Of a DNA stretch of 64,000 nt, positions 42,569-44,473 are shown piece by piece. The DNA lies in the NCBI RefSeq assembly GCF_045037415.1, contig NZ_CP173438.1, one strand, 5' to 3'. The DNA comes from Escherichia coli (lineage in GTDB: Bacteria; Pseudomonadota; Gammaproteobacteria; Enterobacterales; Enterobacteriaceae). Position 1 is the stretch's first letter; each line of letters begins with the position of its first letter. The notes below the pieces were generated by a model. It saw only the letters and a program-made list of their open reading frames with translations, made no database searches and was not told where the DNA came from. The translations under genes were made by a program, and so were the position numbers.

Positions 42569-43258
42569 CTACTGGATCAGAAAATGACGGGCCAGTAGCG
42601 CACTGGTGAAATTCTTCTTCAAATAAAATCCGCGCGGCAGCGTCAGAATCCGTTCGCCCCGGGCACCAATAGCTTCGGTCAGCGCTTTCGCATTCGCTGC
42701 TTTCGGTCGTATCTGTAAATATTCCCCGTGACGAGCGGTGATCCGCTCAATCTGACCGAGAACAATCATATCCATTAATTCTTCCCAGTCTTCGCGTAGC
42801 TGCCGGTCTTCCTCTTCATTCGGGCTCCACAGCAACGGTGATCCTACGCGACGCTTTGCCAGCGGGATGCTGCGCTCGCCTTCAACCGGTATCCACAGCA
42901 CGCGTTTGAGCTTGTGGCGCACGTGGCTGGTTTCCCATGTCACCCCGCTATTGCCCGTTAACGGGGCAACACAAACGAATGTTGTTTCCAGCGGACGACC
43001 AAGACTATCCACAGGGATAGTTTTAAGTTCCACGCCCAGAGCAGCAAAATCTTGCTCAGGTTTACTCCCTGCGCTGGCACCTAGCCAGATCTCCAGTAAC
43101 ACGCCAATCCAGCCCTTATCGCGTTTTAAATTCTCCGGCGTAACCAGCCCGGCAAGTGCCGCCAGTTCTCCCAATGTATAACCAGAAAGTTGTTGTGCTT
43201 GCGCTAACAATTGTTCTTCAGTTTCGGGAGGAGAGAGCAGTGGGCGAGGTTGGGACAT
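42569..43258 (-). CDS. mutH: DNA mismatch repair endonuclease MutH
   Basis: 229 aa; N-terminus [33 protein letters not shown]. Confidence 0.95.
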
Positions 43259-43439
43259 GTCATGATACCTTGGTTAAAAAACAAACAGCAATTATGTGCC
43301 GAATATTCGCAGTGTAACTTTTTCCACATGCGTTGTTCAATTCTCTGATTTATATTGCTTTTTAGGTTGCCGGTAATCGAGTTGCGCAACACTGCAACGG
43401 GTTTTCCAAATCTGGTCACTGAAAATAAACAGGATCTTA

Positions 43440-43845
43440 CACCATGTTATCCACAGAAAGCTGGGATAACTGTGAAAAACCTTCACTACTGTTTCCATTT
43501 ACAGCCTTGACGTGCGACGAAACTCCAGTTTTTAGTGGTTCAGTGCTTAACTTAGTGGCACATTCTGTGGATAAATACGGCGTTGGTTGATCTTTCGCCA
43601 ACCCGTAAATGAGAGGTGTGACCTGGGTCACGAATTACTCTTTTTTATTACTCAAATCACATGTAATACATTGACTGATAATGAATATTTTAAAATCTCT
43701 ATATCTGTCTTATTCAGAATGCTCCGGGTTTTCCCGTAGTAATTCCGTAGTTCTTCACAACTCTATCCACAGAAAAGGTGAATAAAAACGGCTATCCACC
43801 CCTTCCTCTGTTTATAACTCTGCACATAACTGTGAGTTATTCAAT
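43440..43845. promoter_or_regulatory. DnaA-box cluster consistent with DARS2 (DnaA-reactivating sequence 2)
   Basis: Consensus DnaA boxes TTATCCACA (43447-43455) and TGTGGATAA (43566-43574, inverted), near-consensus CTATCCACA (43763-43771) and CTATCCACC (43792-43800); lies in the mutH-rppH spacer. Confidence 0.7.
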
Positions 43846-43942
43846 TGTTATTAGTGTGTAATGCCCTGCAGAGAGTGGTTTACCGTCTTCCTGGAGTATG
43901 AAACAATCATTCGTATATAAAGCTTTATTTTGAGGTAGTCCG

Positions 43943-44473
43943 GTGATTGATGACGATGGCTACCGCCCAAACGTAGGTATCGTGATTTGTAATCGCCAGG
44001 GGCAGGTAATGTGGGCCCGGCGATTTGGTCAGCACTCCTGGCAATTTCCGCAAGGCGGAATCAACCCCGGAGAATCCGCAGAGCAGGCGATGTACCGTGA
44101 ATTGTTTGAAGAAGTAGGATTAAGCCGCAAAGACGTTCGAATCCTTGCTTCAACGCGTAACTGGTTGCGCTACAAATTACCGAAACGTTTGGTGCGTTGG
44201 GACACGAAGCCGGTTTGTATCGGCCAAAAACAAAAATGGTTTCTCTTGCAGCTGGTGAGCGGCGATGCAGAAATCAATATGCAAACCAGCAGTACACCAG
44301 AGTTTGACGGCTGGCGATGGGTAAGTTACTGGTATCCAGTCAGACAGGTGGTGTCATTTAAACGTGATGTCTACCGTAGGGTAATGAAAGAGTTCGCGAG
44401 TGTGGTGATGTCACTGCAGGAAAATACGCCAAAACCACAAAACGCATCTGCTTATCGACGTAAAAGAGGTTAA
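43943..44473 (+). CDS. rppH: RNA pyrophosphohydrolase (Nudix)
   Basis: 176 aa, GTG start; Nudix box [22 protein letters not shown]. Confidence 0.95.

Follow-up and report, generated by a model that had tools for sequence, protein, structure and literature searches.

The spacer between mutH and rppH in this stretch of Escherichia coli DNA (64,000 nucleotides of contig NZ_CP173438.1, assembly GCF_045037415.1, hereafter called the window) carries a cluster of DnaA boxes together with binding sites for IHF and Fis. We identify this element, with a probability of about 95%, as DARS2, the second chromosomal DnaA-reactivating sequence of E. coli and one of four extrinsic regulators of the DnaA ATP/ADP cycle timing E. 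coli chromosome replication. The original prediction had read the spacer in the same way, and its reading is supported by an alignment to the MG1655 spacer (10 of 684 positions differ, with no indels) and by the published primers, which map onto the window; no evidence counting against the DARS2 identity was found. DARS2 is already known in detail, and the identification adds no new biology, though it shows that such elements can be recognised from raw sequence. The residual novelty lies in a conserved triplet of box-like elements around DnaA box VI, in a fixed long-range spacing and in a CRP-type site.

The spacer spans 43259-43942 (684 bp), as had been proposed, and its borders are borne out by the start of mutH at 43258 and the GTG start codon of rppH at 43943. 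mutH occupies 42569-43258 on the minus strand and rppH 43943-44473 on the plus strand, and the open reading frames and the RefSeq annotation give the gene order tas-ygdR-ygdQ-mutH, spacer, rppH-ptsP. Of 5426 complete E. coli genomes, 5424 contain a match to the spacer, with identities of 95-100%. Because of these matches and of the alignment to MG1655 without indels, the window is, as judged from its sequence, the 64-min region of an E. coli chromosome. Nine of the ten differences from MG1655 fall in the 455-bp DARS2 fragment, and DnaA boxes I-VI are untouched. One difference is in an IHF site (43668) and one in a Fis site (43582); the others lie between or flanking the mapped sites and are clustered at 43646-43708. 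An Rfam search of 43100-44100 returned zero matches at E-values up to 1.

The coordinates of the sites were obtained by mapping the oligonucleotides of Kasho 2014 (PMC4245941, Table S1) and of Frimodt-Moller 2015 onto the window. The 455-bp DARS2, the core, the crucial 21-mer, the block containing the two IHF sites (IBS1-2), the oligonucleotides for the Fis sites FBS1 and FBS6, and boxes IV-VI all mapped exactly. The names IBS1 and IBS2 were assigned from the order of the two sites relative to the core. The mapped features are as follows.

43354-43808: full DARS2, 455 bp, bounded by the genomic parts of primers MutH-2 (43354-43372) and MutH-4 (43790-43808) of Kasho 2014 (PMC4245941)
43576-43808: minimal DARS2 (delta-Right), with the core, the IHF sites and FBS2-3; primer MutH-11 at 43576-43596
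From 43597: inactive delta-Right+21 construct; primer MutH-17
43751-43785: core, 35 bp, boxes III-II-I in a 9-3-9-5-9 layout; the delta-Core gap between MutH-15 (43728-43750) and MutH-14 (43786-43806)
43777-43785, minus strand: DnaA box I, TTATTCACC, one mismatch, head-to-head with box II
43763-43771, plus strand: DnaA box II, CTATCCACA, one mismatch
43751-43759, plus strand: DnaA box III, TTCTTCACA, one mismatch
43710-43718, plus strand: DnaA box IV, TTATTCAGA, one mismatch, unconserved; substitution primers Ksh-30/Ksh-31
43566-43574, minus strand: DnaA box V, perfect TTATCCACA, 3 bp from the FBS2-3 block; substitution primer MutH-25
43447-43455, plus strand: DnaA box VI, perfect TTATCCACA; substitution primers Ksh-34/Ksh-35
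43680-43692, minus strand: IHF site, probably IBS1, TAAAATATTCATT, one mismatch to TAANNNNTTGATW; insIBS-10U/traIL primers and consensus scan
43664-43676, plus strand: IHF site, probably IBS2, TAATACATTGACT, one mismatch; IBS1-2 primers and consensus scan
43626-43640: Fis site FBS1, perfect GNNYANNNNNTRNNC, dispensable; oligonucleotide FIS-1L at 43618-43646
43578-43599: Fis sites FBS2-3, essential; oligonucleotides traF, F23L and subF23L
43576-43596: crucial 21-mer; primers MutH-11 and MutH-17
43376-43405: oligonucleotide FIS-4L, holding FBS6, dispensable and poorly conserved

The core is identical to that of MG1655 and reads TTCTTCACA-ACT-CTATCCACA-GAAAA-GGTGAATAA. It is also the gap between the MutH-9 and MutH-10 arms, the "DnaA box I-III" deletion of Frimodt-Moller 2015. 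The interval that had been suggested for deletion, 43440-43845, covers DARS2 plus a conserved rppH-proximal block, and the published core deletion (43751-43785) is narrower. The IBS1-2 block (43664-43692) consists of TAATACATTGACT, GAT and the reverse complement of TAAAATATTCATT, and nowhere else in the spacer is the IHF consensus matched with one mismatch or fewer. Its distance to the core is that of MG1655, with no indels; IBS1 is identical to MG1655, and the difference at 43668 (A here, G in MG1655) is at an N position of the IBS2 consensus. A PciI site, ACATGT (43659-43664), which has served as an IBS marker (PMC11724364), abuts the block. FBS1 is the sole zero-mismatch Fis consensus in the spacer.

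The number of DnaA boxes in the spacer is statistically far above what chance would give. Ten sites match the Schaper-Messer consensus TTWTNCACA, 4 of them perfectly and 6 with one mismatch; dinucleotide shuffles of the spacer have 2.5 +/- 1.5, none of the 1000 shuffles reaching 10. The densest stretches of the whole 64 kb are the 455-bp stretches over 43351-43426, with 8-9 sites each, while most stretches have 0-2. The original prediction rested on two perfect TTATCCACA boxes in opposite orientation, and both were found, at 43447-43455 (plus strand) and 43566-43574 (minus strand), with one further copy in the 64 kb; its two near-consensus boxes are an undercount. Those two perfect boxes are, however, boxes VI and V, which are not catalytic, and the core had been seen only as box II (CTATCCACA). 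Two extra boxes, CTATCCACC (43792) and TTTTCCACA (43320), were discarded as unconserved (mean identity 0.29 and 0.47).

In MG1655, DARS2 carries out IHF- and Fis-dependent ADP release from ADP-DnaA, and its deletion lowers ATP-DnaA and disturbs initiation (PMC4245941, PMC8682772). The essential core consists of boxes III, II and I, while boxes V and VI, and likewise box IV, are dispensable for the stimulation of initiation from plasmids (PMC4245941); box V was later shown to mediate a negative feedback through Fis displacement (PMC8682772). Placed on the window, the steps described for the MG1655 allele (PMC4245941, PMC8682772, PMC11724364) would run as follows. ADP-DnaA would bind core boxes I-III (43751-43785), with the AAA+ domains meeting head-to-head across boxes I and II. 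IHF at IBS1-2 (43664-43692) would bend the DNA and, with Fis at FBS2-3 (43578-43599), activate the core-bound DnaA complex. ADP would then be released, and apo-DnaA would depart and bind ATP, so that ATP-DnaA would rise before initiation at oriC. With rising ATP-DnaA, an oligomer of it would nucleate at box V, spread outward across FBS2-5, over low-affinity boxes that overlap FBS2-3, and displace Fis, which would shut the element down and give the negative feedback (PMC8682772), and IHF binding would be cell-cycle-stage specific and favoured by negative supercoiling (PMC11724364).

The DARS2 allele of the source strain is presumably active, as we infer from its sequence, and one substitution may weigh against this. 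Position 43582, within FBS3 and the crucial 21-mer, is G here and A in MG1655, which changes GATCAACCAATGCCG to GATCAACCAACGCCG, loses the consensus T at position 11 and lowers the match of FBS3 to the Fis consensus. The same change costs one matching base in a weak DnaA-box-like 9-mer beside box V. The 70-mer around 43582 is present in identical form in 536 of 5426 E. coli genomes, and G is the commoner base at the equivalent position in the alignment described below (15 of 22 sequences: 20 non-Escherichia and two Escherichia). Natural FBS-3 variants with reduced consensus identity were reported in 9 of 59 strains, with the effect left uninterpreted (Frimodt-Moller 2015).

The conservation of DARS2 across Enterobacterales was followed with a scan of a genome collection using the core pattern CACA-N4-TATCCACA-N5-GGTGNATAA. 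The scan gave at least 120 loci, and those listed include none from Salmonella or Klebsiella. Among the loci listed, 25 have MutH and/or RppH beside the core and form one class; in it the rppH start is about 185 bp and the mutH start about 500 bp away from the core, the sequence of which is ..CTATCCACAGAAAAGGTGAATAA. Another 41 of the loci listed have a tblastn match to UvrB and/or BioD and a box I of GGTGGATAA; these are DARS1 orthologues. The pattern misses DARS1 of E. coli itself, the box I of which is AGTGGATAA and not GGTGGATAA. The DARS-core pattern is also widespread, among the matches listed, in Pseudomonas, Vibrio and other Gammaproteobacteria, with a few matches in Paenibacillus and Acetobacteraceae contigs; it occurs four times in one Methylococcaceae metagenome-assembled genome (MAG) and twice in Lamprobacter.

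We then aligned 22 mutH-rppH spacers from Citrobacter, Enterobacter, Lelliottia, Kosakonia, Pantoea, Erwinia, Tatumella, Rosenbergiella, Arsenophonus and two Escherichia. The 20 non-Escherichia sequences match the window with a mean identity of 0.59 over the whole spacer, and in these 28 of the 35 core columns are invariant. Mean identity is 0.94-0.99 for boxes I, II, III, V and VI (0.99 each for boxes I, V and VI). FBS2-3 has 0.68, and the IHF sites have 0.53-0.55, with their TAA and TGA anchors retained; box IV (0.41), FBS1 (0.34) and FBS6 (0.33) come lower.

Spacing is conserved as well. The distances from box VI to TTTACAGCCTTGA (51 bp), from TTTACAGCCTTGA to box V (68 bp), from box V to box II (197 bp) and from box I to TGTTTATAA (32 bp) are the same in nearly every genus. 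Over 43421-43820, about 400 bp, nearly all sampled genera have no net indels, even though the sequence between the anchors shows only about 60% identity; the mutH-proximal part does contain indels, and the core lies 488 to 570 bp from the mutH start. Conserved spacing of the core, the IHF sites and the Fis sites had already been reported in the literature, and the fixed spacing out to box VI is the addition of the present analysis. According to the comparative data, spacing is constrained over the whole region of about 400 bp, and this includes the right half, which plasmid assays had classed as dispensable.

These spacings bear on an alternative in which the perfect boxes V and VI serve mainly as a titration sink that buffers free DnaA, and not in reactivation. 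DnaA chromatin immunoprecipitation with sequencing (ChIP-seq) in MG1655 gave three DARS2 peaks, at 2969124, 2969306 and 2969501, with coverages of 78, 199 and 213 (PMC11317965). The coordinates are labelled NC_000913.2 in that paper and fit version 3, and the mapping was confirmed on the sequence. On the window the peaks fall at about 43796 (core), 43614 (box V region) and 43419 (box VI region), so that coverage is strongest in the regions of the two perfect boxes; boxes II and III under the 2969124 peak are described as a "double DnaA box" (PMC11317965). The titration reading also agrees with the dispensability of boxes IV-VI on plasmids. Yet box V has a demonstrated specific role in Fis displacement, and a plain sink would need neither exact spacings of 119 bp and 197 bp over about 20 genera nor conserved flanking half-sites. 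We therefore consider a mainly titrating role quite unlikely.

The right half of DARS2 contains several conserved elements in addition to box VI. Box VI is the middle element of a core-like triplet at 43435-43469, TCTTACACC-ATG-TTATCCACA-GAAAG-CTGGGATAA, in which TCTTACACC occupies 43435-43443. The triplet has the 9-3-9-5-9 head-to-head layout of the DARS1 and DARS2 cores. Its inverted third element, with TGGGATAA at 43462-43469, has three mismatches to the box consensus, and the stretches TGGGATAAC and GTTATCCACAGAA are at least 90% conserved in the 20 non-Escherichia sequences. Across about 20 Enterobacterales genera the triplet is nearly invariant, and its distances to box V (119 bp) and to box II (316 bp) are kept exactly. 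Its first two boxes have been listed as a "double DnaA box" (PMC11317965).

43484-43512: conserved block, in which ATTTACAGCCTTGAC (43497-43511) is at least 90% conserved

An rppH-directed promoter, TTGACG-18-TTTAGT, was predicted from RNA polymerase SELEX (Shimada 2014) and maps to 43507-43536, with its -35 element inside the ATTTACAGCCTTGAC block. A transcript from this predicted promoter would cross box V, the Fis and IHF sites and the core. Further towards the core, a CRP-type palindrome, TGTGACCTGGGTCACG (43617-43632), overlaps FBS1 and sits between FBS2-3 and the IHF sites. It has the form GTGAY-N4-RTCAC with a variable centre in all sampled Enterobacteriaceae, Kosakonia having a perfect TGTGATAGCTATCACA, and is missing from Erwiniaceae. 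We also considered a terminator-like hairpin at 43617-43632; the T-run is unconserved and the half-sites are conserved, and a protein-binding palindrome fits better. A literature search for DARS2 with CRP or cAMP gave nothing relevant, and the parts of the DARS2 literature that we consulted contain no mention of the inverted third element of the triplet, the fixed long-range spacing or the CRP-type site.

We tentatively propose, as a possibility with the odds against it, that the "dispensable" right half of DARS2 is functional and architecturally constrained. The box VI triplet might be a second head-to-head assembly site for ADP-DnaA or a loading site that feeds the core, and the block and promoter at 43484-43536 together with the CRP-type palindrome might couple DARS2 to transcription or carbon status.

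The only GATC (Dam) sites of the spacer lie in this region, at 43433-43436, just upstream of the box VI triplet, and at 43589-43592, within FBS2-3. Both are retained in most sampled genera.

The spacer had been described as non-coding, and RefSeq places in it a 48-aa open reading frame, ygdT (43444-43590, plus strand), which overlaps boxes VI and V. If ygdT were a small protein gene, it could account for the conservation and make the DnaA boxes incidental, and its annotation by RefSeq in MG1655 and in matching strains speaks for this. However, the ygdT start codon is missing in 10 of the 21 other sequences that have box VI, the frame ends after 11 codons in Enterobacter, Lelliottia, Kosakonia and one MAG, and elsewhere its length varies; in addition, conservation is limited to binding-site blocks and reaches upstream of the ygdT ATG. 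Since the open reading frame decays in other genera, most of which lack the start codon or have an early stop, what is conserved is the DNA itself and not a protein. We rejected ygdT as a real gene; it is probably not a coding gene, conservation through a ygdT protein is very improbable, and the annotation looks spurious.

Between DARS2 and rppH, two further blocks are conserved, 43808-43854 and 43876-43908, with the sequences CTGTTTATAACT, CTGTGAGTTATTCAATTGTTATTAG, TGGTTTACCG and TGAAACAATC; CTGTTTATAACT includes a one-mismatch DnaA-box-like TTATAAACA (minus strand), one base outside the 455-bp fragment. The two blocks are probably promoter or leader signals of rppH. A sigma-70 scan for an rppH promoter near the palindrome described below and the 43808-43854 block found nothing at threshold; read by hand, TGT-TATTAG at 43846-43854 is a candidate extended -10 element. 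In at least five complete E. coli genomes an IS1 element has inserted here with a 9-bp target duplication, AGTTATTCA, at 43835-43843. The insertion point lies between DARS2 and rppH, within the ATAACTGTGAGTTAT palindrome and the conserved block, and the element adds about 0.8 kb between them. On the mutH side, 43273 is G here and A in MG1655, so that the mutH promoter predicted from SELEX has TTTAAC in place of TTTAAT as its -10 element; an alternative mutH promoter-like site, GTTACA-16-CATAAT, is present at 43318-43291.

Such signals could also be taken to mean that the cluster is mainly a transcriptional control region. DnaA, together with IHF, Fis and possibly CRP, would then act on the divergent promoters of mutH and rppH-ptsP, in the manner of DnaA at dnaA, nrdA or mioC. 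Hansen and Atlung place DARS2 "in the mutH promoter", and it was for its high affinity to DnaA that the fragment was originally isolated. Genomic SELEX with sigma-70 RNA polymerase bound the spacer, with promoters predicted in both directions, one of them (43507-43536) inside DARS2; the 43318-43291 site, the two conserved blocks towards rppH and the CRP-type palindrome would fit as well. Against this, published mutations in the core, IBS and FBS directly alter the ATP-DnaA level and initiation, and the reaction has been reconstituted in vitro and needs no transcription (PMC4245941, PMC8682772). Moreover, DARS2 relocated to other sites on the chromosome still complements. Control of transcription as the main function is thus unlikely; it is compatible with DARS2 and would be at most an added role of the element.

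The original prediction had also drawn attention to a decamer, ATAACTGTGA, occurring twice. Both copies are present, the second, as stated, inside a palindrome, ATAACTGTGAGTTAT; the first starts at 43466, one base from the 43467 that had been given.

43466-43475, plus strand: decamer copy 1, overlapping the GGATAAC tail of the box VI triplet and a TTTTTCACA box (43471-43479, minus strand)
43826-43840, plus strand: decamer copy 2 (43826-43835) with the palindrome, 18 bp past the end of the DARS2 fragment, in the rppH-proximal block

Neither the decamer nor the palindrome is a known DARS2 element, and copy 2 is outside the 455-bp fragment, so that this part of the prediction did not hold. Repeats of this length are common by chance: 527 of 2000 spacer shuffles (26%) contain a non-overlapping direct repeat of at least 10 bases, and 0.9 inverted repeats with 5-nt arms and a 5-nt loop are expected per shuffle. 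Copy 1 is the tail of the conserved TGGGATAAC, with only its ATAAC half conserved, while in copy 2 only CTGTGAGTTAT is conserved, the ATAAC arm of the palindrome being replaced in Citrobacter and others. Because each copy conserves a different half, the two are not a shared functional unit, and we rejected the decamer as a functional repeat. We make no claim of an internal duplication from the three collinear repeats CGGGTTTTCC, TATCCACAGAAA and ATAACTGTGA: they are spaced unequally (50 and 18 bp against 39 and 62 bp), and conservation of CGGGTTTTCC is low (0.53-0.64). The similarity held up only where it centres on the boxes.

Among the known systems, DARS2 of MG1655 is the one that the window element repeats, and Fujimitsu 2009 is reportedly among the studies of it. 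Locus, 455-bp extent, site order and spacing are the same in the two (Kasho 2014, PMC4245941; Miyoshi 2021, PMC8682772). DARS1, in the bioD-uvrB spacer, shares the three-box core with its 9-3-9-5-9 layout, the head-to-head boxes I and II and the proposed ADP-release chemistry; in E. coli its core reads ATACACA-TGG-TTATCCACA-GGAAT-AGTGGATAA (ATACACATGGTTATCCACAGGAATAGTGGATAA). However, DARS1 measures only 101 bp and works independently of IHF and Fis, while the window element has mutH and rppH as its flanks, GGTGAATAA as its box I and an IHF and Fis module. The window element falls outside the DARS1 class, since its flanks are mutH and rppH and the DARS1-like loci form a class of their own.

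datA is likewise a non-coding DnaA-box cluster at which bending by IHF alters the nucleotide state of DnaA. It acts in the opposite direction by promoting ATP hydrolysis on ATP-DnaA, lies downstream of glyVXY and has its boxes around a single IHF site. oriC, too, has a cluster of DnaA boxes of high and low affinity, along with sites for IHF and Fis. No AT-rich 13-mer unwinding element is known to have been described in DARS2, and no search for one was made in the window; the spacer has only two GATC in its 684 bp, and its sequence matches DARS2 rather than oriC. While oriC forms head-to-tail pentamers of ATP-DnaA, the boxes of DARS2 prefer a head-to-head pair of ADP-DnaA (PMC8682772).

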